The notes under the pieces are model-generated. The model saw only the letters and a list, made by a program, of their open reading frames with translations, was not told the DNA's origin and made no database searches. This document shows positions 3,128 through 32,285 of a stretch of 41,361 nucleotides of DNA, one piece after another. The position numbers were made by a program, and so were the translations under genes. The stretch's first letter is position 1. Each line of letters opens with the position of its first letter. Origin of the DNA: Patescibacteria group bacterium (GTDB taxonomy: Bacteria; Patescibacteriota; Patescibacteriia; JAACEG01); the NCBI GenBank assembly GCA_034660735.1, contig JAYEJQ010000056.1:1-41361 (forward strand), in the 5' to 3' direction.

Positions 3128-3973
3128 CAACATATCGGGGCGCCATCTCGAGTAATCGAGTAAATAAATTTGGCTTATAACGGTGGACTCCATAATTAAT
3201 TTAGCCTATAATATATATTAAATATTTAAATATATAAAATTATGGACAATACCGTGGGAAGTCTAACTCAATATCAATTATCAATCATCATTGGTTCAAT
3301 TTTAGGCGATGGATATATTAGGCAAATAAAAGGAAGAAAAGACGCTTTTTTAGAAATCAATCATTCTATAAAAGCTAAAAAATATGTAGACTGGAAATTT
3401 GACGCCTTAAAAAATATATGCAAATCACCGCCAAAACAAAGAATTATTGATGAAAGAAGAACGGCTTATCGTTTTTATACTAAACAACATAGTGAATTAA
3501 GCGCTTTGCTTAAGTTGTTTTATAAAAACAAAAGAAAGATAATACCGTCTTCATTAGTATTAAATCCGCTAATTTTAGCAGTTTGGTTTATGGACGATGG
3601 AAGCAAATCAAGAAAATATGATGTTTATCTTAATACTCAGCAATTTTCATTAAATGACCAAAAAGCACTTCTTAAAAGATTGCGTGATTTAGGACTCAGA
3701 GCAAGGTTAAACAAAGATAAAAAATATTACCGCATACGATTTTTAAAAGAGAGTATTTCTAAATTAAATGAAATTATTTCGCCTTATGTAATAGAGTCTA
3801 TGAAATACAAATTGAGTTATGACCCCGTAGAGACTTGATTTTAAAATCAGAGTTCCGCAAATGCGCGGAGCTAATACGCCAACTCCGTTTATTGATAAAA
3901 ATGGAAGAAGATATAGTCCATGCCATTAGTAATAATGGAAAGTAATTCCGAATTTACGGGATGAAATAGACAG
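3128..3973 (+). mobile_element. Group I intron in 23S rRNA, inserted after the residue equivalent to E. coli U2500 (peptidyl-transferase centre)
   Basis: Joining ...ggttcggcacct (ends 3127) to cgatgtcggctcgtcc (starts 3974) restores the conserved GGCACCUCGAUGUCGGCUC. The 5' exon ends in U and the intron ends in G (gacag). A candidate guide sequence ggggcgcc (3137-3144) can pair with ggcacct, giving a U-G wobble at the splice site. The core-like string gaagatatagtcc is at 3907-3919. An ORF sits in the intron. Confidence 0.8.
3242..3838 (+). CDS. LAGLIDADG homing endonuclease (double-motif, 198 aa), intron-encoded
   Basis: Two LAGLIDADG-type motifs: IIGSILGDGYI near the N-terminus and LAVWFMDDGS at about residue 112. 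Located inside the 23S intron. Confidence 0.85.
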   Translation: MDNTVGSLTQYQLSIIIGSILGDGYIRQIKGRKDAFLEINHSIKAKKYVDWKFDALKNICKSPPKQRIIDERRTAYRFYTKQHSELSALLKLFYKNKRKIIPSSLVLNPLILAVWFMDDGSKSRKYDVYLNTQQFSLNDQKALLKRLRDLGLRARLNKDKKYYRIRFLKESISKLNEIISPYVIESMKYKLSYDPVET

Positions 3974-4085: not shown

Positions 4086-4208
4086 CTATCCGCCGTGGGC
4101 GTTGAAATTTGAGAAGGCGCATTCCTAGTACGAGAGGACCGGAATGCATAAACCTCTAGTGCACCAATTGTTCTACCAAGGGCATCGTTGGGTAGCTATG
4201 TTTAGTTT

Positions 4209-4241
<33 letters not shown>

Positions 4242-4498
4242 GTCTTTAAGATTAGATTTCTCAGATCTCCCAGAGACTATGGGATTGATAGGCCGTATGT
4301 GTAAGTTTGGCAACAAATTTAGCAGAGCGGTACTAATAGATCGTTTTTTTCTCCGCGCTTTTCTGTTTGAAAAGTTGTGGAACTATAAGAATGTCCAGTT
4401 TTGGCGCTCGTTAACGCGTTTATAATTTCGGATTTCAGATGTCGGATTTCAGATTTGGAATTTTGAAAATTATTTTTTATATTGATATATAAAAAACA

Positions 4499-15091: not shown

Positions 15092-15174
15092 TTATCTATG
15101 TTTTTTTTGGTGAATATAAAAAAATTGACAGAAATTATTGATTGTTTATAATAAAAATAAAAAACAATAAAAAT

Positions 15175-15645
15175 ATGAAAGCAAAAATACATTTTTACAA
15201 ACGGGATAATATAAATACAGACGAAATTATTCCAGCGCGGTATTTGAATTGCGACAATGAGGCTGAATTAGCAAAACATGCGATGGAGGATATTGACAAA
15301 GATTTTACGCAAAATGTCCAGCAAGGAGATTTTATTATTGCGGGAAAAGATTTTGGATGTGGATCTTCGCGCGAGCACGCTATTTGGGCGCTTCGCGGAG
15401 CAGGCGTAAAAGGCATAATTGCTAAATCTTTTGCGCGAATTTTTTATCGCAATGCGATTAATAACGGTTTTTTAGCAATTGAATGCTCGGAATTAAACGA
15501 TGATTTAAAAACAGGCGATGAGATAGAAGTAAACTTAGAACAAGGATTTTTTACTGTTAACGATAAAAAATACAATTTTTCGCCAATTCCAGAATTTGTG
15601 AAAAAGATTATGGATAAAAAGGGATTGTTAAATACTATTGAATAA
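15175..15645 (+). CDS. leuD: 3-isopropylmalate/(homo)aconitate dehydratase small subunit (short LeuD/HacB type)
   Basis: GCGSSREHA and FYRNAINNG motifs. The ATG at 15175 is preferred over the TTG track start at 15142. Confidence 0.8.
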   Translation: MKAKIHFYKRDNINTDEIIPARYLNCDNEAELAKHAMEDIDKDFTQNVQQGDFIIAGKDFGCGSSREHAIWALRGAGVKGIIAKSFARIFYRNAINNGFLAIECSELNDDLKTGDEIEVNLEQGFFTVNDKKYNFSPIPEFVKKIMDKKGLLNTIE

Positions 15646-15691
15646 AATTTATTTTTTAACAAGTGGTAAAAATTAAATTAATTAACATTTT

Positions 15692-16756
15692 ATGGACAAA
15701 AAAATTTGCGTTATCAATGGTGATGGCATTGGTCCTGAAGTTATGGCTGAAGCCATTAAAGTTTTAAATAATATAGCTAAAAAATACGGACATAATTTTC
15801 AGTATGTTGAAGCGCTGGCTGGCGGAGTCGCATGGGATGAATGCGGAGAGCATCTTCCAGAGAAAACTTTAGAGATTGCCAATGACAGCGATGCGATTCT
15901 GTTCGGATCAATAGGAGGACCTGTTTCAGACCAAGATAAGCCAAAATGGAAAGATTGTGAGAAGAACGCTCTATTGGCAATGAGAAAATATTTTGACCTT
16001 TTTACTAATCTACGTCCATCAACTGTCTTTAAGCCTTTAAAAAATATTTCAGTGCTTAAGCCAGAACTCGTCGGAAACGGTTTTGACATTCTAATTATAC
16101 GCGAGCTCACAGGAGGCATCTATTTTGGCGGACATAAGACCAAAAATGGCGTTGCTGAGGATATTATGAAATATTCCGAAGCAGAAGTTAGACGCGTCGC
16201 GAAAGTAGCATTTGAAGCGGCAATGAAAAGAAAAAAGTTTTTAATCTCCGTTGATAAAGCTAATATTTTAGATTGCTCTGTGCTTTGGAGAAAAGTAGTA
16301 AACGAAGTTGCCGAAGATTATCCGCAAGTTAAACTCCAGCATATGTATGTTGATAACGCGGCAATGCAGCTTGTTAAAAATCCGCAAGAATTTGATGTGA
16401 TTGTCACAGGAAATATGTTTGGAGATATTTTATCAGACCTATCTTCAACTTTCGCGGGATCGCTTGGGTTGCTTGCGTCAGCGTCTTTAAATGAATCTAA
16501 TTTTGGAATGTATGAACCGAGCGGAGGGTCGGCTCCTGATATTGCTGGGAAAGGAATCGCGAATCCTATCGCGCAAATTCTTTCAGTGGCAATGATGCTG
16601 AAATATTCGTTTGGATTAGAAAAAGAATCAGATAATATTGAGCAGGCGGTAATTAAAATTTTAGAACAAGATTATCGCACAGGAGATATTTGGGAGCAAG
16701 GATGCCAAAAAATAGGGACAAAACAGATGGGTGATAAAATCTGCGGGAATATATAG
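15692..16756 (+). CDS. leuB: 3-isopropylmalate dehydrogenase family (beta-decarboxylating dehydrogenase)
   Basis: 354 aa. GDGIGPEV, LIIRELTGGIYFG, NMFGDILSD motifs. Confidence 0.85.
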   Translation: MDKKICVINGDGIGPEVMAEAIKVLNNIAKKYGHNFQYVEALAGGVAWDECGEHLPEKTLEIANDSDAILFGSIGGPVSDQDKPKWKDCEKNALLAMRKYFDLFTNLRPSTVFKPLKNISVLKPELVGNGFDILIIRELTGGIYFGGHKTKNGVAEDIMKYSEAEVRRVAKVAFEAAMKRKKFLISVDKANILDCSVLWRKVVNEVAEDYPQVKLQHMYVDNAAMQLVKNPQEFDVIVTGNMFGDILSDLSSTFAGSLGLLASASLNESNFGMYEPSGGSAPDIAGKGIANPIAQILSVAMMLKYSFGLEKESDNIEQAVIKILEQDYRTGDIWEQGCQKIGTKQMGDKICGNI

Positions 16757-16818
16757 AATCATTTTAACACAATAACATAATAACATTTAAACATTATAAT
16801 CATACTAAGAAAAACAGA

Positions 16819-16857
16819 CACGGCTTTTGCAATATTGCAAAAGCCGTGTTTTATTTT
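16819..16857. terminator. Bidirectional intrinsic terminator between convergent leuB and asd
   Basis: Perfect stem cacggcttttgcaa/ttgcaaaagccgtg, with A-run and T-run flanks. Confidence 0.7.
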
Positions 16858-16884: not shown

Positions 16885-17886
16885 TCAATTTATAATTAAT
16901 TCCGCGATTTGGACTACGTTCAGCGCTGCGCCTTTTAAAATCTGATCCCCGCATACGAAAAATTCTAAACCGTTTTTTCCAAAAATCAGACTGTTCCTTA
17001 TTCTGCCAACCTCAACACTGTATTTTCCGCTGGCTGTTAAAGGCATAGGATAAACGCGATTTTTAATGTCATCGCGAATTTGAATTCCGTCCGCGTTTTG
17101 AAAAATATTTTTAATTTTTCGTATATCAACCTTTTTTTCTGTTTCAACTAAAATGCTTTCTGAATGTGCTCGCATTATTGGAACCCTAACACAAGAGCAA
17201 GAGATTTTTATATTTTCATCATTGAATATTTTTTTTATCTCCCAGACAACCTTCATCTCCTCTTTTGTATAGCCATTTTTCTGAAAAACATCAATATGCG
17301 GAATTAAGTTAAAGGCGAGCGAATGCTGAAAAATTTTATTGCCTGTTTTCTCGCCTTTAAGAAATTTTGTTGTTTCAATTTTTAATTCCTCTATACCTTG
17401 TGCTCCAGCCCCGCTTGCGGCCTGATAAGTTGATATAATAATTTTTTTTAATCCATAATTTTTATATATTTGCCATAATGGAATTGAGGCAATAGCTGTT
17501 GTGCAATTTGGGTTTGCGATTAATAACGAATTTTTTACAGCATCTGGATTTATCTCAGGAATAACTAACGGAATATTTTCATCATATCTAAAAGTTGAAG
17601 AATTATCAATCACGATACAATTATTGGAAGTCGCTTTTTTTGCATTAAGTTTTGACCATTCTCCGCCGATCGCAAAAAACGCAATGTCTAATTTATTGTA
17701 ATCAGCGCGATTTGCGTTTCGCAGGATAATTTCGCCGAACTGGGTTTTGATTTTTTGTCCAGCGGATTTTTCAGACGCGTATAAATTTAAAAATTCAATA
17801 GGAAATTTTCGTTCAAATAAAACATTCAAAATTTCCTTTCCAACCATTCCAGTAGCGCCAAAAATTCCAATTTTATATTTTTTCAT
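16885..17886 (-). CDS. asd: Aspartate-semialdehyde dehydrogenase
   Basis: 333 aa. GATGMVG Rossmann N-terminus and NPNCTT active-site Cys context. Confidence 0.9.
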   Translation of the reverse strand: MKKYKIGIFGATGMVGKEILNVLFERKFPIEFLNLYASEKSAGQKIKTQFGEIILRNANRADYNKLDIAFFAIGGEWSKLNAKKATSNNCIVIDNSSTFRYDENIPLVIPEINPDAVKNSLLIANPNCTTAIASIPLWQIYKNYGLKKIIISTYQAASGAGAQGIEELKIETTKFLKGEKTGNKIFQHSLAFNLIPHIDVFQKNGYTKEEMKVVWEIKKIFNDENIKISCSCVRVPIMRAHSESILVETEKKVDIRKIKNIFQNADGIQIRDDIKNRVYPMPLTASGKYSVEVGRIRNSLIFGKNGLEFFVCGDQILKGAALNVVQIAELIIN

Positions 17887-17892
17887 AGTTTT

Positions 17893-19239
17893 TTATTTTA
17901 TAAAAATTTTATGAAAACCGCGCATTACTTTTTTCATTTCGTCGGTTTTAACGATCGCTTCTAACCGTGCGCAATTTTTATATGGAAAAGCGCCAATTTG
18001 CGGATCAGGGCAAATTTTTATCAAAGTGTTATTGAAAGTGCTTACTGTTTTCCAGTCTAAATTTCCAATCAACATAACCATATTTACTGGTGACGCGCTT
18101 ATTTTACAATTTTTCTTTTTTATTTCTTTAATCGCTTTTTTCAAATTTTTATTTCTGCTACCAACAACTATCTGTAAACTATCGCGCGTATTCCGTATTA
18201 AAACCATATTAAGCGCAAGCAAATTTAAAATCTTGCTTATTTCAAAAAGAAATCCGTGCTCATTAATTCCATTACCGCTAACAATTATCATTGCCAGCCC
18301 TTTTTTAAAACCGATGATTTTCGCGCCTTTTTGTTTTGAACTATCCGCTTTTATTAAAGTTTTGTTATTATAATTAATAATTGACGCGACTTCAACGGTT
18401 GTCCGTGTTTTTTCAACATATTGCATAGCTTTATTATGGATAATTTTGCCAGCCTCTTCTGCTTCAATATAACTTAAACAAGATACTGTTTTTGTGTTTT
18501 TAACAATTCTCGGATCGGCAGATAAAACTCCATTGACATCTTTCCATAAAATAATTTTATTGGCTTTTACAGCCGCGCCAACAAAACAGGCAGTCGTGTC
18601 TGTTCCGCCACGTCCCAAAATCGTTGTTCGGTTATTTTTTGTAATTCCAGTAAAACCAGCAATTACTGGAATTGATTTTATATTTTTTAATTTCGCGCGA
18701 ATATTTTTCGCAGAAATTTTATAATCAATATTTGCGTTAAGATAATTGTCGTCCGTAATAATCGGAATATTCTCTGCAAATAATTTTTGCGAGAATAGAT
18801 TACTAGAATTTAAAAATTCAGTAAAAAAAATGGTTGACATTTTTTCGCCATAAGATAAAATTTTATCGCGGAAAATATCCAATGAATTAAATTTGCGTAT
18901 TTTTTGAAAATCAATTTCAAGATTTTTTAACAAATTATCAATTTCAGTAATGGCGATTTGCTGATTTTTTTTATCCATTTTTACGAAGTTAATCATCTTA
19001 ATATGCTTCGTGCGGATTTTTTCAATAGATTTTTTCTCAATTTCTTTATTTTTCTTATATAATAATAGATTTTCTAAAATATCAGTCACGCCATTTAAAG
19101 CTGAAATAACAACAATCGGATAAAATCCGTTTTCAATCTGTTCCTTAATCTGTTTTTTTATTAATAAAATAAATTTTTGCGTAAGAATTCCACCGCCAAA
19201 TTTATTTACTATGATTCTGTTTTGTGTTTTTGTTTTCAT
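17893..19239 (-). CDS. Aspartate kinase
   Basis: VNKFGGG N-terminus, GRGGTDTTA motif, ACT-like C-terminus. The ATG at 19239 is preferred; the track start at 19296 is TTG and would overlap the upstream gene by 50 nt. Confidence 0.8.
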   Translation of the reverse strand: MKTKTQNRIIVNKFGGGILTQKFILLIKKQIKEQIENGFYPIVVISALNGVTDILENLLLYKKNKEIEKKSIEKIRTKHIKMINFVKMDKKNQQIAITEIDNLLKNLEIDFQKIRKFNSLDIFRDKILSYGEKMSTIFFTEFLNSSNLFSQKLFAENIPIITDDNYLNANIDYKISAKNIRAKLKNIKSIPVIAGFTGITKNNRTTILGRGGTDTTACFVGAAVKANKIILWKDVNGVLSADPRIVKNTKTVSCLSYIEAEEAGKIIHNKAMQYVEKTRTTVEVASIINYNNKTLIKADSSKQKGAKIIGFKKGLAMIIVSGNGINEHGFLFEISKILNLLALNMVLIRNTRDSLQIVVGSRNKNLKKAIKEIKKKNCKISASPVNMVMLIGNLDWKTVSTFNNTLIKICPDPQIGAFPYKNCARLEAIVKTDEMKKVMRGFHKIFIK

Positions 19240-19246
19240 AATTTTC

Positions 19247-20254
19247 TTATTTTTCCAAAATAGTCTCTTTAATCTTCTGCCCAAAATGCCTTCCAACTCC
19301 GCGCTCTTGTAAAAATACTAAAATTTTATCGCCCTTTTTTAATTTGACAACGGAAATATATCCGTTGTCTTTTTTGGTTAGGCGGATTGTTTCTGCGTTT
19401 TGCATTATCAAACTTATATTTCTGTTTTCAAATTTTGCTTTAACAATCAGCATCGGTCTTTTTTCAATTTTTACTCGCCCGATAATCGCTTGCTCGGTAT
19501 TTCCTTTGGAATCAATAATTAACGACTTGTCTCCGCTTTTTAATTCAGCGAGGTATTTTGTTTTATCGTTCGGCATTCTAATATAAGCATGCGCGCCGCC
19601 AGCATTTACCCTGAAAGCGCGCGGATCGCAATATGGATTTTCAACATTTTCATTATAAACCAAAAACATAGCGCTTGACGAATCGCCGACCAACATCCCT
19701 TGTCCTGGGTTTAAAATTGACGAAGTATCAATTACAACTCTGTCGCCGATGCCAAGCGCTTCTACGTTTGTAATTTCAGCTTCAACTAATTTTAATTTTT
19801 CGTTTTGCGTTTCTTTAATAAGTCCGCCGACTTTTTTGATTTCATTTAAGTCGCTTGTTTCTAATAAAATTCCGTCCGCGCCAACCTCCATAGTTTCTAA
19901 CGCTAATTTTGCTTCTTTGTAATTTTTAACACATTGAATTATATTTGAAGTTTTAGAAATTAAATTTTCTAATGGAATAATTGTCCATTCTTTATTTTTA
20001 ACAATAATCGGGATTTTACCTTGATATTTAATCGCTTCATCTTCTGATTCTTTTGTTGTTAAAAAAACTTCCGCAACATTTTTATTTATTTTTAAATCTG
20101 CTTTTTCGCTATCGGAAATAATTAAAGTCCGTGATAATTTTTTAATCTCATCAATATTTTCAGGTTGAACATAAATCGCTTCAAATCCGCTTTCAATCGC
20201 TAAAGTAGCCAACTTTTTATCCCAAAAAGGGAGTTTATACCAAAATTTTTTCAT
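19247..20254 (-). CDS. 3-dehydroquinate synthase II (archaeal type)
   Basis: Collinear with my recollection of M. jannaschii MJ1249: WTIIPLENLI, GDRV.IDT, ENPY...R.FRVNAG..HAY, KTKYL.ELK.GD, GRVKIE.RP, QNAETIRL, RHFG..IKETI.EK. Confidence 0.85.
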   Translation of the reverse strand: MKKFWYKLPFWDKKLATLAIESGFEAIYVQPENIDEIKKLSRTLIISDSEKADLKINKNVAEVFLTTKESEDEAIKYQGKIPIIVKNKEWTIIPLENLISKTSNIIQCVKNYKEAKLALETMEVGADGILLETSDLNEIKKVGGLIKETQNEKLKLVEAEITNVEALGIGDRVVIDTSSILNPGQGMLVGDSSSAMFLVYNENVENPYCDPRAFRVNAGGAHAYIRMPNDKTKYLAELKSGDKSLIIDSKGNTEQAIIGRVKIEKRPMLIVKAKFENRNISLIMQNAETIRLTKKDNGYISVVKLKKGDKILVFLQERGVGRHFGQKIKETILEK

Positions 20255-20297
20255 AAATTTTAAAAGTTAAAATAAATATTAAGATATAAAAATATTA

Positions 20298-20484
20298 TTT
20301 TGAATTACAAAACGCAAAAAATATGTCACCCTGAATTTATTTCAGGGTCTGTCATTACTATTCGCTGAATTATAATTGGATGAATAAAATCTAAATTTTT
20401 ATTTTATACTGCTTAAATATAATATAGTAAATAGTAGATACGAATCCTGACCCCGCTGCTCGCGAGCGGCGGGGCAGGATGACA
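20298..20484. mobile_element. Family-A element, copy A5, in the spacer between ADH synthase and DHQ synthase II
   Basis: tgtcaccctgaatttatttcagggtctgtcattac...caggatgaca. The right-end hairpin is replaced by the GC-rich cctgaccccgctgctcgcgagcggcggggcagg. The string aaatattaagatat is present on both sides (20274-20287 and 20527-20540). Confidence 0.65.
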
Positions 20485-20540
20485 ATACTTGAATTAAAAT
20501 TATTTTTTTAGTTATTTAATTATATAAAAATATTAAGATA

Positions 20541-21293
20541 TTATTGCGCGTAAACCGCGCTTCTTATTTTTTTAATCATAGCAGGGACATCGTCGGCTTG
20601 AAAAGCGTTGCGTCCGACTGAAACTCCTGCGGCTCCTACTGAAACACAATCACTAATAGATTTTAGCATTGTTTCTTCGCTTCCTTTTGCTCCGCCAGCG
20701 ATTACAACAGGAATATCAACACCATCGCAGACTTTTTTAAAACTTTTCGCGTCTCCTGTAAATGGAACTTTTACGATATCCGCTCCGAGTTCAAACGCTA
20801 CGCGCGCGGCATGCTTTACTTTTTTCGTGTCTGTATAATTAATAATCTTTCCATCAACTTCATCTCGCGGGTACATCATAGCAAGCAGAGGCAAGCCGAC
20901 TTTTTCGCACTCATAAGAAATTTTTCCTAAATCCGCCAACATTTCAGGCTCGTATCTGTTTCCTAAATTTATATGAACTGAAACTCCTTGCGCGCCCATC
21001 TCTTTTATTTCTTGTGGAGTTGCGATTAAAACTTTTTTTAACACAACGCCCATTCCTGTTGAAGCGGAGCAATGGATAATTGTCGGAAGATCGCCGATAA
21101 CCATTTTGTATTTTTTGTAAATTCCTTTATGGATTACAATCGCGTCAACTCCTCCTTCTTTAACGTTCGCGATAGTTTTTTTTATATCAATTAATCCGTC
21201 AATCGGTCCGTCGCTAACCCCATGATCCATTGGCAGAATAACAGTTCTGCCTTCAGGGCTGATAATTTTGTCCAGCAAATTTTTTTTGTCCAT
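20541..21293 (-). CDS. 2-amino-3,7-dideoxy-D-threo-hept-6-ulosonate (ADH) synthase, class I aldolase DhnA family
   Basis: Collinear with my recollection of MJ0400: PMDHGVS.GPI.GLIDI.KT, AMMYPR, HAAR...ELGADIVK, GAAGV.VGRN.FQ.DDV. Confidence 0.8.
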   Translation of the reverse strand: MDKKNLLDKIISPEGRTVILPMDHGVSDGPIDGLIDIKKTIANVKEGGVDAIVIHKGIYKKYKMVIGDLPTIIHCSASTGMGVVLKKVLIATPQEIKEMGAQGVSVHINLGNRYEPEMLADLGKISYECEKVGLPLLAMMYPRDEVDGKIINYTDTKKVKHAARVAFELGADIVKVPFTGDAKSFKKVCDGVDIPVVIAGGAKGSEETMLKSISDCVSVGAAGVSVGRNAFQADDVPAMIKKIRSAVYAQ

Positions 21294-21858
21294 AAAATTT
21301 ATAATTATATATTAAATTTTGACATATTTTATTTCCTTATTTTTTAACACTCCTTGACAATGGAGAGTCGGGGAGGGTTTTTTAAAAAATTTAACCCCTT
21401 AAATTATCTTTGTCAGGTGGGATTTAATATGAAATATGCTAAAGTTTAGTTATATAAATTAGAAAAACCTCTTAGTGAGGCTTTTGTTTTTTTTAGTTAT
21501 TTTATAAATTAACAATCGCCTCAAATAATAAAATTAAAAAAATAATAAGATACGAAAAAAGAGAAAAATAAATTTTCCCAAATATTAAATACAACTATTT
21601 TTTCTGCTTTAATTAAATTCATTATATATTTTAAATTTTTTGCGACTTTATAATATATTTTACTTCTTATTATATTTTTGTCAAATAATTGATTTTTGTA
21701 AAAGATAGTGCTAATATGTATATAAATTAAAATTTTATATAATAGATTTGCCGCATAATTAATTTCTATCGTGATTTTTTTTCCAAAAAACGGATAAGCA
21801 ATTTTGACCAAATTTTTCAAAAATTTTAACGCCTTCCGAAGCACTTTGGCGGACTTAT

Positions 21859-21942: not shown

Positions 21943-23631
21943 ATGATTGGAGCAGATATTTTGTTAAAATCTTTATTAAAAGAAGGAGTAGAAATAATTT
22001 TTGGCTATCCTGGAGGAGTAACAATTCCATTGTATGACAAACTTAAAAATTATCCGCAGATTAAGCATATTTTAACGCGGCACGAACAGGGTGCCGCTTT
22101 AGCCGCTGACGGATATTTTAGAACTACTGGCAGGGTCGGGGTCTGTCTTGCCACATCAGGACCTGGCGCAACAAATTTAATTACTGGAATTGCTAACGCT
22201 TATATGGATTCTATCGGAATAGTCGCAATTACTTGCCAAGTTTCGAGCGCTCTTATCGGCTCGGACGCTTTTCAAGAAGTTGATATCACGAGAATTACAA
22301 AGCCGATAACCAAGCATAATTATTTTATTGATAATATTAATGATTTGCCTAGTATCGTAAACGAAGCGTTTTATTTGGCGTTAAGCGGACGACCGCGTCC
22401 AGTTCATATTGACATACCAGTAGATATTTTAAAAACCGAAGTTAAAAAATTCAATTATCCGTCAAAGGCAAGTTTGTCAAGTTATAGTTCTTTGCAAAAA
22501 ATTAGCAAGGAAGAAATAAAAAAAACTTGTCAATTGATTGAAAAATCCGAAAGACCTATTGTAATCGCTGGACACGGAATATCAATATCGCAAGCAGAAA
22601 CGGAATTAAAAAAATTTATTGAAAAAACGGATATTCCTGTTGTTACCACTTTGTTGGGAATTGGCTCGCTGTCTGAAAAGCATCCGATGAATTTTGGAAT
22701 GCTTGGAATGCATGGAATGGCTTACGCTAATTATGCCACGCATAATGCTGACTTAATTATTGGAATTGGAACTCGTTTTAGCGATCGCATCACTGGAAAC
22801 ATAAAAGAATTCGCAAAAAACGCAAACGTTATTCATATAGATATTGATCCTGCTGAAATTGGAAAAAATATTTCTGTAAATATTCCGCTTCTCGGAGACT
22901 GTAAAAAAATATTAATGGAACTGAATAAAAAAATTGTTCAGTTGTCGCATAGCGATTGGGTGATGAAAATTAAAGAACGGAAGGAGCAGACAGATTTGCA
23001 AAAAATAAAAAAAAGTTCAAGGATTGATAATAATAAATGCTTAATGGCGCAGGATATTATGCGTGAAATAGATTTACAGACTAAAGGCGAGGCGGTTATT
23101 GTTAGCGATGTAGGACAAAATCAAATGTGGAGCGCGCAATATTTTGAATATACAAAGCCAAACCAGTTTTTAAGCGCTGGCGGGCTTGGTTCGATGGGAT
23201 ACAGTCTGCCTGCTTCCATTGGAGCTAAATTTGGAAATCCAAAATCAGACATTTGGGCAATAATGGGAGATGGCGGTTTTCAGATGAATATGCAGGAGTT
23301 AGGCGTAATTATGGAACATAAATTGCCGATTAAAATTATAATTTTAAATAATGGATATTTAGGAATGGTAAGGCAGTGGCAGGAGATGTTTTTTGAAAAA
23401 AATTACGCCGCGACTAAATTAGCAAATCCAGATTTTATCCAAATCGCTAAATCTTACGGAATTGAAGCTTATCAAATAACTGAATGGATGGATGCTAAAA
23501 GCAAAATAAAAAAAGCCATCAATTCAGACAAGCCGATTTTTCTTGATTTCATAATTGGCGCTGAAGATATTGTTTTGCCTATGATTCCAACAGGGAATAA
23601 CCTAGGTGATATTATTGTTGAAAGGAGTTGA
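21943..23631 (+). CDS. ilvB: Acetolactate synthase large subunit-type ThDP enzyme
   Basis: 562 aa. GYPGG, TRHEQGA, TSGPGATN, GDGGFQMN motifs. No small-subunit gene adjacent. Confidence 0.85.
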   Translation: MIGADILLKSLLKEGVEIIFGYPGGVTIPLYDKLKNYPQIKHILTRHEQGAALAADGYFRTTGRVGVCLATSGPGATNLITGIANAYMDSIGIVAITCQVSSALIGSDAFQEVDITRITKPITKHNYFIDNINDLPSIVNEAFYLALSGRPRPVHIDIPVDILKTEVKKFNYPSKASLSSYSSLQKISKEEIKKTCQLIEKSERPIVIAGHGISISQAETELKKFIEKTDIPVVTTLLGIGSLSEKHPMNFGMLGMHGMAYANYATHNADLIIGIGTRFSDRITGNIKEFAKNANVIHIDIDPAEIGKNISVNIPLLGDCKKILMELNKKIVQLSHSDWVMKIKERKEQTDLQKIKKSSRIDNNKCLMAQDIMREIDLQTKGEAVIVSDVGQNQMWSAQYFEYTKPNQFLSAGGLGSMGYSLPASIGAKFGNPKSDIWAIMGDGGFQMNMQELGVIMEHKLPIKIIILNNGYLGMVRQWQEMFFEKNYAATKLANPDFIQIAKSYGIEAYQITEWMDAKSKIKKAINSDKPIFLDFIIGAEDIVLPMIPTGNNLGDIIVERS

Positions 23632-27301: not shown

Positions 27302-28357
27302 TTAAAATTTATTAAGTTCTTTTATAAATTCATTTAATAATTTTTTTTCTTTGACTTTTTTAATAATTTTTCCCTTTTTGCAAATCAGCCCGCAGTTTTT
27401 TCCGCCAATTACAGCAATATCCGCCTCGCGCGCTTCTCCTGGACCGTTCACAACGCATCCCATTACAGCGATATGTATCGGTTTTTTATAATTGGAAACC
27501 GCCCTCTCTATTTTTTTAGTTAAAGCGATTAAGTCAATTTCTGTCCGTCCGCAAGTCGGACAACTAGTTATTATCGGACCGAAATTTCTCAAATTCAGAG
27601 AGCTAAGTATTTCTTTAGCGACTTTTATCTCTTCTACTGAATCTGCTGTTAAGGATACGCGGATTGTGTCGCCGATTCCTTTATATAAAAGATGCCCGAT
27701 TCCGATCGCGGACATTATTGTTCCGCGAAAAACCGTCCCTGCTTCGGTTATGCCAATATGCAGAGGATAGTCAGATTTCGTGCTTAATAATTTATATGCC
27801 TCTACGGTTCTTTCTATATCTGACGCTTTTAGCGAGACAGCGATGTCTGTAAAATTTAATTTTTCTAAAATATCTATATGCCTAATCGCTGATTCAACCA
27901 TTGCGTGCGCGGTCGCCTTATTTTTATGTTTATTTAGAATATCTTTTTCCAATGATCCAGCGTTAACTCCGATACGAATCGGTATTTTTTTGCTTTGCGC
28001 CGTTTTAACAACCGCGGCAATTTTTTCTTTTGATCCTATGTTTCCTGGATTTATTCTTAATTTATCAACCCCTTGCCTGATCGCTTCTAACGCTAAACCG
28101 CTTGAAAAATGAATATCAGCCACTAATGGAATTTTAATTTTAGCTTTTATCTCGCTTAAATTTTTCGCCGCCGCCATATTGGGAACAGCAACTCTGATAA
28201 TTTCACATCCCGCTTTTTCTAATTTTTTTATCTGTCTAACTGTTTTTATTAAATCAGCAGTATCCGTGTTTGTCATTGATTGAATTGAAATAGGGGAGTT
28301 TCCGCCGATAAATAAATTGCCGACTTTAATTTTTTTTGTTTTTTTTCTATTTTGCAT
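27302..28357 (-). CDS. ispG: 4-hydroxy-3-methylbut-2-en-1-yl diphosphate synthase
   Basis: 351 aa. VQSMTNT-type N-terminus (IQSMTNTDT), SCPTCGR, MGCVVNGPGE. Confidence 0.9.
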   Translation of the reverse strand: MQNRKKTKKIKVGNLFIGGNSPISIQSMTNTDTADLIKTVRQIKKLEKAGCEIIRVAVPNMAAAKNLSEIKAKIKIPLVADIHFSSGLALEAIRQGVDKLRINPGNIGSKEKIAAVVKTAQSKKIPIRIGVNAGSLEKDILNKHKNKATAHAMVESAIRHIDILEKLNFTDIAVSLKASDIERTVEAYKLLSTKSDYPLHIGITEAGTVFRGTIMSAIGIGHLLYKGIGDTIRVSLTADSVEEIKVAKEILSSLNLRNFGPIITSCPTCGRTEIDLIALTKKIERAVSNYKKPIHIAVMGCVVNGPGEAREADIAVIGGKNCGLICKKGKIIKKVKEKKLLNEFIKELNKF

Positions 28358-29603
28358 AAATTTCAGCGCCTAATTTTTTTAGTCTTTTTACGATATTTTC
28401 ATATCCTCGTTCAATTTGGCAGACATTCCCGATAGTTGTAGTTTCTTCTGCTATTAAGCCAGCAAGTAATAATGTCATTCCCGCGCGCAGATCGGGACTG
28501 TCAACGTTTTTTCCAAAAAATTTTGTAGGTCCATTAACAATAACGCGGTGCGGATCGCACATAATAATATTAGCGCCCATTTGGTTTAACTTATCAATAA
28601 AAAATAGCCGTCCTTCAAAAATTGATTCGTGAATTAAACTCGCGCCTTTTGCCTGCGTCATTAATAATGTAAATGGCGCTTGCAAATCTGTCGGGAAACC
28701 AGGGTATTCATGCGTAATTATATCAGTATTTGTAAATTTGCTATTTGGCAAGGTCTTAATAAAATTTTTTCCGATTTCTAATTTTCCGCCAACGTTTTTT
28801 ATCATCAATAAAAAATTTTCTAAATGTGAAGGATCGCAGTCTGAAATTTTTATTTTACTATTTGTTAAAAGCCCCATAACAACAAAAGTTCCAGCCTCTA
28901 TTCTGTCTGGGATAATAGTTGTATTTTTAGCGTTTAATTTTTTTACGCCGTCAATAATAATTACAGATGTTCCAGCTCCTTTAATTTTAGCTCCACAATT
29001 ATTTAGGTGTTCTGCCAAAGCTGAAATTTCAGGCTCTTGCGCCGCATTTTTTAAGATAGTTTTGCCTTGCGCCAAAACAGCCGCCATCATCAAAGTTTCT
29101 GTTCCAGTAACTGAAATCTTTGGAAAGATATAATAACAGCCACAAAGTTTTTTCGCTTTAAAATGATAGCTGTTTTTATACTCTTTAACTTCCGCTCCTA
29201 ATGCTTTAAACCCCTTAATAAATAAATCTATTGGACGTTTCCCAATCATGCATCCGCCTGGATGCGGCAAAATGACTTCGTTGAATCGTGAAAGCATCGG
29301 GCCAGTCAATATAATAGAAGCGCGCAAACTATTGCCTAATTTTTTATCAATTTCAATTTTATCTATCCCATCAGTGGATATTTTTAACTCATTTCTTTCT
29401 GGTTTTTCATGAATACCAGCGCCTAGTTTTTCTAAAATTAAAAGCATTCTTTTAATATCACCAATTTGAGGCATATTGCTGATTTTTGTTTCGCCATTTA
29501 CTAAAACAGATGTGGCTAAAACTTTTAGAGCATGATTTTTAGCGCCCTTGACTTTAATTTCGCCGCTTAATTCGCGGCCTCCTTTAATAATGTATTGTTC
29601 CAT
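28347..29603 (-). CDS. murA: UDP-N-acetylglucosamine 1-carboxyvinyltransferase
   Basis: 418 aa. KVKGAKNHALK N-terminus, active-site loop GGCMIGKRPIDL. Confidence 0.9.
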   Translation of the reverse strand: MEQYIIKGGRELSGEIKVKGAKNHALKVLATSVLVNGETKISNMPQIGDIKRMLLILEKLGAGIHEKPERNELKISTDGIDKIEIDKKLGNSLRASIILTGPMLSRFNEVILPHPGGCMIGKRPIDLFIKGFKALGAEVKEYKNSYHFKAKKLCGCYYIFPKISVTGTETLMMAAVLAQGKTILKNAAQEPEISALAEHLNNCGAKIKGAGTSVIIIDGVKKLNAKNTTIIPDRIEAGTFVVMGLLTNSKIKISDCDPSHLENFLLMIKNVGGKLEIGKNFIKTLPNSKFTNTDIITHEYPGFPTDLQAPFTLLMTQAKGASLIHESIFEGRLFFIDKLNQMGANIIMCDPHRVIVNGPTKFFGKNVDSPDLRAGMTLLLAGLIAEETTTIGNVCQIERGYENIVKRLKKLGAEIYAK

Positions 29604-31531: not shown

Positions 31532-31726
31532 ATGAAACAAAATAATAAAACAAAAGAGCAAGCATTTAGAAAATGGTTTGTTGATATGGTTTATGATAAT
31601 ATGGCAATGGAAGATGAGGCTGTTTTAACTAAAAAAGAGATTAGCGACAGAAGTAAAACACAAATGAATAATTTAATAAAAGAAGGAATGCATAAAAAAA
31701 TTATTTTTCCAAAAAAATATGCCTAA
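31532..31726 (+). CDS. Small protein, candidate antitoxin/inhibitor partner of the downstream Fic protein
   Basis: 64 aa. Overlaps the fic start by 8 nt. NLIKEG is a near match to the (S/T)xxxE(G/N) Fic-inhibitory motif. Confidence 0.4.
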   Translation: MKQNNKTKEQAFRKWFVDMVYDNMAMEDEAVLTKKEISDRSKTQMNNLIKEGMHKKIIFPKKYA

Positions 31727-32285
31727 ATCAAAAACACAACCTACTTTTAGAGAAACAAAATTTGGTATTTTACCTATTGTTGAAATAGAAAATAATATCA
31801 CAAATAATTTAATTAGCGTTAGAGTTTATATTTTAAGAAATTATAAAAAATTAAATATTGGAATTAAATTAGCAAAAGATTTGCATTTAAAATTGTCTGG
31901 AAGTTTATTTGATGAAGCTGGAAATTTTAGAAAAAGGCAAGTAGAATTAGGCGAATATGAACCGCCGAGTTATTTTAAAATTTTGGAAATGATGAAAAAT
32001 TGGGAAGCCGATTTTAATGAAAGAAAAAAATTTATTAAAACATCAGACGGTCATATTGAAATATTGGCGTGGATGATGCACAAATTTTTATGGATACATC
32101 CGTTTTTTGATTATAATGGCAGAATCTCTAGATTATTAGGAGAAATATATTTATTGCAAAATAATTTACCGGTTATGAGTTTTATGGGGGTTAAAAGAAA
32201 TGAATTTGCAGAAGCGATGAAATCAATAACTTTTAAAAATAATTTAAGCGGAATTATTAAGATTATTAAAAAGAATTTAAAATAA
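31719..32285 (+). CDS. Fic/DOC family protein
   Basis: HPFFDYNGRISR matches HxFx(D/E)GNGRxxR except for Tyr in place of the first Gly. No internal (S/T)xxxE(G/N) motif found. AT-rich. Confidence 0.75.
   Translation: MPKSKTQPTFRETKFGILPIVEIENNITNNLISVRVYILRNYKKLNIGIKLAKDLHLKLSGSLFDEAGNFRKRQVELGEYEPPSYFKILEMMKNWEADFNERKKFIKTSDGHIEILAWMMHKFLWIHPFFDYNGRISRLLGEIYLLQNNLPVMSFMGVKRNEFAEAMKSITFKNNLSGIIKIIKKNLK

Follow-up and report, generated by a model that had tools for sequence, protein, structure and literature searches.

What do an aspartate kinase and an aspartate-semialdehyde dehydrogenase do directly behind the two enzymes that open the archaeal-type route to 3-dehydroquinate (DHQ), and why would a bacterium with a very small genome keep the four genes together? 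The question is raised by a stretch of 41,361 nucleotides from a Patescibacteria group bacterium (GenBank assembly GCA_034660735.1, contig JAYEJQ010000056.1), called the window in what follows. It corresponds to the entire contig C56, the longest of an assembly with 77 contigs, 815,712 bp, 31.5% G+C, 93.9% completeness and 0.66% contamination. Where its DHQ synthase II has close relatives in named genomes, these are all metagenome-assembled genomes (MAGs) of Patescibacteria (Parcubacteria, Paceibacterota, Moraniibacteriota, Roizmanbacteria and Gracilibacteria) and the genomes sampled from the phylum are small (0.7-2.1 Mb), which identifies the host as a bacterium of the Candidate Phyla Radiation (CPR), a group generally portrayed as incapable of amino-acid synthesis. 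In our view, the four genes very probably form the module through which this CPR bacterium enters aromatic amino-acid biosynthesis, organized as one operon in the order leader peptide-attenuator, aroA', aroB', ask and asd.

According to this proposal, the aspartate kinase and the aspartate-semialdehyde dehydrogenase would convert aspartate into L-aspartate semialdehyde, which the aldolase would condense with a keto-sugar phosphate (6-deoxy-5-ketofructose 1-phosphate, DKFP, in Methanocaldococcus jannaschii) to give 2-amino-3,7-dideoxy-D-threo-hept-6-ulosonate (ADH). DHQ synthase II would then turn ADH into DHQ; other loci in the genome encode an AroD-AroE-AroK fusion, AroA and AroC, which would carry DHQ to chorismate, and PheA, TyrA and the trp genes would lead from there to Phe, Tyr and Trp. 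The argument draws on the identities of the genes, the gene content of the genome, synteny and the conservation of the leader and its terminator, from which we infer the enzyme activities and the identity of the keto-sugar.

Family assignment of the four genes

The preliminary description of this DNA placed four co-directional genes on the minus strand, in the order aldolase, DHQ synthase II, ask and asd, and its positions hold. The gaps read off the sequence are likewise those given there: 286 nt (20255..20540), 7 nt (19246..19240) and 6 nt (17892..17887). The first gene, aroA' (20541..21293, minus strand), encodes an ADH-synthase-type class I aldolase of the DhnA/DeoC family (250 aa, PF01791), which scores 270.7 bits against the ADH synthase subfamily model NF005556 (cut-off 241). 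The preliminary description regarded a clustering with fructose-bisphosphate aldolases (FBAs) as fatal to its reading; the enzyme turned out to be nearer to ADH synthase, in a sense that its best match among solved structures is the ADH synthase MJ0400 of M. jannaschii, with 215.6 bits, as against 119.2 for the class I FBA of T. tenax and 91 for LsrF, and that the archaeal FBA model gives 136 against a cut-off of 430. Residues Asp23, Tyr141 and Lys175 align with Asp33, Tyr153 and Lys184 of MJ0400, which we take to be the catalytic Asp and Tyr and the Schiff-base lysine of the DhnA fold. This conservation points to an active aldolase and, being common to FBAs, is uninformative on the substrate.

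The second gene, aroB' (19247..20254, minus strand), encodes a 3-dehydroquinate synthase II of 335 aa, matched by PF01959 with 378.2 bits over residues 3-335 (model positions 2-344 of 344) and by the equivalog model NF002627 with 416.5 (cut-off 392); no solved structure was found for it. It is followed by the aspartate kinase gene (17893..19239, minus strand; 448 aa), above the cut-off of TIGR00657 (227.1 against 208.7), whose true start is the ATG at 19239. A longer version of it, a 467-aa open reading frame (ORF) that starts at a TTG and overlaps the DHQ synthase II gene, was discarded as an artefact of the ORF listing, and it is the ATG that yields the 7-nt gap. The best matches of the kinase in the PDB are aspartokinases, headed by that of M. 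jannaschii (3C1M), and it belongs to the long class that comprises the M. jannaschii, plant and E. coli LysC-like enzymes. Its C-terminal ~160 residues give no match to the Pfam ACT domains up to E = 1, and the orthologue of locus L023 gives a weak one (E = 4e-4), so the regulatory ACT region has probably diverged. The last gene, asd (16885..17886, minus strand; 333 aa), encodes a bacterial-type aspartate-semialdehyde dehydrogenase with both domains matched (PF01118 and PF02774) and with scores above the cut-offs of TIGR01296, the asd_B model (382.1 against 324.2), and NF011456 (401.4 against 223).

The rest of the pathway and the fate of aspartate semialdehyde

Is there another way into the aromatic pathway in this genome? 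As the preliminary description supposed, a canonical entry is lacking and the later steps are present. [quoted passage not shown] On the other side of DHQ, contig C10 (21356-23257, minus strand) encodes a 633-aa fusion of type I dehydroquinase, shikimate dehydrogenase and shikimate kinase (AroD-AroE-AroK), which recurs over its full length in locus L018 (56% identity), three separate genes being the rule in most other CPR loci. AroA and AroC are encoded on contig C61, prephenate dehydratase (PheA) on C68, prephenate dehydrogenase (TyrA) on C8 and TrpA on C31, and a TrpE-like protein on C71 reaches 445 bits with TIGR01820, which is below the cut-off. A gene of the EPSP-synthase family in the window itself (28347-29603), considered as a candidate aroA, was rejected because it is MurA. 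No entry to this complete aromatic pathway is visible, therefore, other than the aldolase-DHQ synthase II pair.

An entirely different product has to be weighed at this point, since the same two enzyme families can also serve secondary metabolism: the aldolase and DHQ synthase II could make a compound of the type of 3-amino-4-hydroxybenzoate, as in the GriI/GriH and BagB/BagC systems of Streptomyces, with ask and asd supplying the substrate. Enzymes of the GriI/GriH type also use aspartate semialdehyde, and the models BagB_FevI and BagC_FevH do give weak matches. However, these fall far under the cut-offs of the models concerned (NF041223/NF041224; 159.4 against 500 for BagB_FevI and 134.1 against 750 for BagC_FevH), whereas those of the ADH synthase (NF005556) and DHQ synthase II models are exceeded. 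Together with the presence of the whole pathway from DHQ to chorismate and no other route to DHQ being found, with the co-operonic position of the pair and aroD/E/K/A/C in relatives, and with a leader rich in Phe and Tyr codons, this makes a secondary metabolite the most improbable of the explanations considered here.

Within the proposed aromatic entry module, the part of ask and asd depends on which other enzymes draw on aspartate semialdehyde. The aldolase is its only visible consumer: both semialdehyde-drawing enzymes, that towards lysine and diaminopimelate (DAP) and that towards threonine and methionine, were not found in the genome, and therefore ask and asd would serve the aromatic pathway alone. 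This is what the preliminary description suggested, and further evidence agrees with it. Whole-genome tblastn searches (E <= 1e-3) returned no paralogue of ask, asd or DHQ synthase II; with the aldolase they returned none either, which reflects a limit of sensitivity, because a profile search later found a distant DhnA-type aldolase on contig C30. DapA and Hom were not found in four other CPR genomes with DHQ synthase II (G401 and G402, of the same genus, G439, of the same class, and G205, 99% complete in 3 contigs), and a type I DAHP synthase was found neither in these four nor in G199, which is one closed contig. In a phylum sample of 401 genomes, DHQ synthase II occurs in 4 and a member of the asd family scores above cut-off in 16, including all 4 with DHQ synthase II.

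Could ask and asd nonetheless do the ordinary housekeeping work of the aspartate family (Lys/DAP, Thr, Met) and lie next to aroA' and aroB' by chance? Both are universal in free-living bacteria, the asd of the window is of the ordinary bacterial type and the genome is incomplete (93.9%), all of which would suit that explanation. It is nevertheless improbable, since the missing DapA and Hom are also missing from the four module-bearing CPR genomes, one of them 99% complete, and since asd is rare in the phylum and co-occurs with DHQ synthase II; the conservation of the gene order across distant CPR lineages, where the block is embedded in aro operons, and the aromatic-codon leader in front, both described below, speak against it as well.

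Taken as genes of aromatic precursor supply, ask and asd provide a natural example of precursor dedication that is unusually clear, with both other aspartate-family branch points apparently gone and a leader in front that would sense aromatic amino acids. Judging from its gene content, the genus appears to keep a complete capacity to go from aspartate to Phe, Tyr and Trp in 0.8 Mb. This matters for the metabolic reconstruction of CPR genomes, since automated pipelines would score ask and asd as an "incomplete Lys/Thr pathway". The four-gene cassette is, in addition, compact and testable in E. coli aro mutants.

Source of the keto-sugar partner

Where does the second substrate of the aldolase come from? 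Its source is absent from the window, as had been pointed out before. In the genome as a whole, neither a class II FBA nor a methylglyoxal synthase (MGS domain) or a recognised DKFP route was found, and the available candidate is the DhnA-type aldolase on C30 mentioned above, which exceeds the cut-off of NF005321 (459.7 against 420) and has pilC and a phosphohexomutase gene as neighbours. On family assignment, this enzyme is likely the glycolytic aldolase of the host; by analogy with MJ1585, which is reportedly the DKFP-forming enzyme of M. jannaschii, it is also the sole candidate for making DKFP.

The aldolase of the operon might itself do this work, either as a glycolytic class I FBA or as a bifunctional enzyme that makes both the keto-sugar donor and ADH. 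Such a role would account for the missing class II FBA and methylglyoxal synthase, it would be compatible with the catalytic Asp, Tyr and Lys shared with FBAs, and FBP aldolase activity has reportedly been observed for MJ0400. We consider it unlikely, although slightly less so than the housekeeping explanation: the C30 enzyme is the likelier glycolytic aldolase, the aroA' product is much closer to MJ0400 than to the T. tenax FBA in the scores given above, and it is always paired with DHQ synthase II.

The aromatic entry module can also be carried one step further. In these CPR lineages, ask and asd might survive only as enzymes of the aromatic pathway, with an aldolase whose donor is something other than methylglyoxal-derived DKFP, or is self-made; the reason for considering this is that searches of the 94%-complete genome turned up no methylglyoxal synthase, class II aldolase or recognised DKFP route. 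This extended version is a tentative one, to which we give a rather small chance; if true, the shikimate pathway would be entered here by a variant chemistry that has not been described. In either case, the locus bears on where bacteria with aroA' and aroB' get their keto-sugar substrate.

Conservation of the block across CPR genomes

The synteny search that the preliminary description had proposed gave a clear answer, as the order aldolase-DHQ synthase II-ask-asd recurs, on the same strand, in 10 of the 13 Patescibacteria loci with DHQ synthase II. The exceptions are L015, which is cut inside the aldolase gene, L017, without a nearby asd, and L025, where DHQ synthase II stands alone. The four-gene arrangement is therefore not a product of chance. 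In three loci (L022, L023 and L027) the block runs directly into aroA-aroK-aroE-aroD-aroC, and in L018 and L021 (= G205) the aro genes lie upstream of it, which indicates that the module is a conserved CPR operon and that the window holds a trimmed version of it, with the later genes dispersed.

The asd_B type of the window was otherwise seen only in the near relatives L015 and L016 (80-82% identity) and in a Gracilibacteria locus (50%); of the other copies, two were run against family models, those of L013 (= G205) and L023, and both are of the asd_EA type, and in the remaining loci asd is just 25-27% identical to that of the window. The slot of the operon has been refilled with a different class of asd, and therefore selection appears to keep the semialdehyde supply in the operon.

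Some peculiarities of individual loci were observed along the way. The Gracilibacteria asd (L026:9372-10367) is open only under genetic code 25, with 19 in-frame TGA codons in table 11. In L015, ~600 nt downstream of the intact asd, a partial second copy of its 3' end is found (4141-4458; residues 229-333, 83% identity), and in L013 (4889-7285, G205) a 798-aa ORF with no Pfam match is inserted between ask and asd.

A leader peptide and putative attenuator upstream of the operon

How would such an operon be controlled? Upstream of aroA' lies a leader peptide ORF (21521..21622, minus strand; MNLIKAEKIVVFNIWENLFFSFFVSYYFFNFII) with 33 codons, 11 of them for Phe, Tyr or Trp. A promoter-like site, TTGACA-16 nt-TAAAAT (21657..21684, minus strand), is located ~35 nt upstream of this ORF; it agrees with the consensus in 11 of 12 positions and is, as a consensus match only, the best sigma-70-type match on the minus strand in the region. 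The leader ORF is followed by an intrinsic-terminator-like hairpin, AAAAGCCUCACUAAGAGGUUUUU, with a U-rich tail (21463..21485, minus strand), which was found by a terminator scan and would be the terminator of the attenuator. Overlapping with it, a predicted antiterminator (21476..21523, minus strand) is part of the minimum-free-energy fold, in which UGAGGC and UUGUU pair with GCCUCA and AACAA. The UGAGGC arm consists of the stop codon of the leader and the next 3 nt, and GCCUC is common to the antiterminator and the 5' half of the terminator, so that the two predicted folds are mutually exclusive. Their folding energies are -11.1 kcal/mol for the antiterminator alone and -8.9 kcal/mol for the terminator.

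The leader and the hairpin are nearly invariant between the window and L016, even though the adjacent coding DNA has diverged. L016 is the only relative with an alignable leader sequence, and it is too similar to show covariation. Beyond sequence alignment, an ORF with runs of Phe and Tyr codons precedes the aldolase gene in all 10 relatives examined (e.g., MKFGQIWFSYFYFYFTLK... and MNILNITSPAVNFYFYFFTKT), and in all 10 a hairpin with a U-run follows within ~45-90 nt of the leader, ahead of the aldolase gene, the sequences being unrelated. Short ORFs equally rich in aromatic codons number 8 in the whole genome; those on C73, C53 and C41, considered as further leaders, were rejected because they lie antisense to coding regions or overlap with them, and no aro gene follows downstream.

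Ribosome-mediated attenuation is the most likely control of the operon's expression. With the tRNAs for Phe, Tyr and Trp charged, the ribosome would reach the leader stop codon and cover the antiterminator arm, and the terminator would form; when the ribosome stalls in the run of Phe, Tyr and Trp codons, the antiterminator would form and allow read-through. The leader and terminator are conserved as described, and attenuation is the mechanism that we infer from them.

Insertions in this copy and points against the proposal

This copy of the operon carries two insertions. The first, of ~144 nt, lies between the attenuator and the start of the aldolase gene (21303..21446, minus strand) and was delimited by alignment with L016, the closest relative, which is without it. 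Within it are inverted repeats, which are imperfect, and, on the opposite strand, a hairpin resembling a terminator (21350-21375); a search for its repeat family gave none that was clear, only low-complexity matches. The second fills the 286-nt gap between aroA' and aroB' (20255..20540, minus strand), where the preliminary description had placed an element of a repeat family that it called A. By blastn, this is indeed a dispersed hairpin-repeat element, resembling a miniature inverted-repeat transposable element (MITE) and made of two hairpin modules, with 86 high-scoring segment pairs genome-wide. In L016 the spacer between the aldolase and DHQ synthase II genes is only ~40-45 nt, so that the window has ~240-250 extra nt.

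Which observations weigh against a four-gene operon with an attenuated aromatic entry function? The gap repeat carries a terminator-like hairpin on the operon strand (20348..20328) that could break the co-transcription of aroA' and aroB'. Folded as a whole, the leader region shows no unusual stability (z = -1.1), and the antiterminator rests on a single predicted fold. The aldolase misses the cut-off of the equivalog model TIGR01949 by a narrow margin (276.8 against 299.45); its orthologue in G205 is above the cut-offs of both NF005556 and TIGR01949 (352.9 and 322.3). To these have to be added the missing methylglyoxal synthase or other DKFP route and the fact that, in a MAG of 77 contigs, gene absences are probabilistic.

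Origin and distribution

The preliminary description saw in the locus the horizontal acquisition of a complete cassette. The patchy distribution of DHQ synthase II (4 of 401 genomes) gives partial support to horizontal acquisition, and most CPR copies of the module seem to carry an asd of archaeal/eukaryal type (asd_EA); an archaeal donor does not stand as well, since the nearest labelled relatives of the enzyme are bacteria and not archaea. A FastTree phylogeny of 150 sequences (50%-identity representatives plus the named CPR sequences), indicative given that 20 clusters were labelled, gathers the CPR DHQ synthases II in one clade with a support of 94. Next out from it come Poribacteria and Delftia, then Halothiobacillaceae and Lindowbacteria, all within a clade of 35 rows (97). 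Methanobacterium and Freyarchaeota are found in neighbouring clades, and Marsarchaeota, Bathyarchaeia and plants lie further out. The enzyme of the window belongs to a short subfamily (~330 aa) whose labelled members are bacterial. As a side observation on this protein family, nuclear genomes of yam (Dioscorea; protein cluster P0218) have annotated DHQ synthase II homologues, which are 364-405 aa long.

Closer to the host, DHQ synthase II and chorismate synthase occur together in both of the other species of the genus and in none of five genomes of other genera of the family, and in the rest of the class DHQ synthase II is present in 1 of 50 genomes, a distribution that fits transfer within the CPR or massive loss. 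There is no sign of a recent event, because region and genome have the same G+C content. An old acquisition, followed by spread or loss inside the CPR, fits these data, with no sign of a fresh archaeal transfer. The import of an archaeal operon en bloc does not fit, because both the gene order and the class of the kinase differ; the CPR module looks, on this comparison, like a separate assembly of the same idea as the archaeal operons.

The bacterial relatives outside the CPR do not have the four genes together: Delftia and Lindowbacteria have an aldolase-DHQ synthase II pair and Poribacteria DHQ synthase II alone, in no case with ask or asd adjoining. In Delftia sp. Cs1-4 (L030; CP002735.1:2701939-2716949), the pair forms a trio with a shikimate dehydrogenase gene and is surrounded by major facilitator superfamily (MFS) transporters, an IclR regulator and a second shikimate-dehydrogenase-like gene. 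Delftia presumably has the canonical pathway, and its pair suggests a different use, possibly catabolic or secondary.

Genomic setting of the operon

A strong two-way terminator hairpin of 14-16 pairs (16818..16849, minus strand; terminator scan) ends the operon and is common to it and to the convergent leuB. The flanks consist of leuD-leuB (15142-16756), convergent with the operon, and ilvB (21943-23631), divergent from it, and recur in L015 and L016. No leuC adjoins leuD, which has pepA upstream, and ilvB is not followed by ilvN. The leu and ilv flanks, together with the operon, may represent a small biosynthetic island in a CPR genome.

Other features were noted at a greater distance. At the start of the window, an ORF for a LAGLIDADG homing endonuclease (3242-3838) is nested in the rRNA region, and such ORFs are typical of the rRNA introns of CPR bacteria. 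A 449-aa protein with a Fic motif (HPFTDGNGR) is encoded between aroA and aroC (C61:1541-2890, minus strand), and a second Fic-domain gene is found in the window (31719-32285), between hsp20 and dnaK.

Comparison with known systems

The ADH route has been established in M. jannaschii (MJ0400 and MJ1249; White 2004, as cited in PMC1173090) and in Methanococcus maripaludis (Porat 2006, as cited in PMC9885046). The CPR system has in common with this DKFP route of the methanogens the same two enzyme families, the conserved Asp, Tyr and Lys and the lack of DAHP synthase and AroB, and differs from it in the CPR host, in the short bacterial-type DHQ synthase II and in the joining of ask and asd into the operon. 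Among the papers searched, none was found that links DKFP, ADH synthase or DHQ synthase II with CPR or Patescibacteria.

Among bacteria, there is already the published example of Desulfovibrio (2005, BMC Biol, PMC1173090), whose operon opens with an attenuator and then has aroA' and aroB', as proposed here. That operon is without ask or asd and continues into genes for Phe, Tyr and Trp, whereas in the window aroB' is followed by ask and asd, with the later genes dispersed over other contigs.

The coupling to precursor supply has its closest counterpart in the aro operons of archaea, in which genes for the semialdehyde are likewise co-operonic with the aldolase that consumes it: ask-asd-aldolase-DHQ synthase II-aroD-aroE-aroK-aroA in Marsarchaeota, ask-aldolase-DHQ synthase II-aroD in Bathyarchaeia and asd-aldolase-DHQ synthase II in Freyarchaeum. 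Unlike in the CPR, where ask and asd come last, in these operons they come first. The kinases of the archaeal operons belong to a shorter class (400-418 aa); their alignment with the kinase of the window, at 31-33% identity, starts only at residue ~125-144 of the latter, and the asd of the window, set against those operons, is of the bacterial type.

Finally, the window agrees with the other CPR loci (L016-L027) in the gene order, in the leader rich in Phe and Tyr codons with its terminator and in the missing canonical entry enzymes, and stands apart from them in being trimmed to four genes, in its two insertions, in its asd_B and in the 633-aa AroD-E-K fusion encoded elsewhere. Knowledge of the pathway itself is left unchanged by this locus; both the pathway and the layout of the operon are already known in kind; what is peculiar to it is local, namely the trimming to four genes, the replacement of the asd class, the insertions and the AroDEK fusion.

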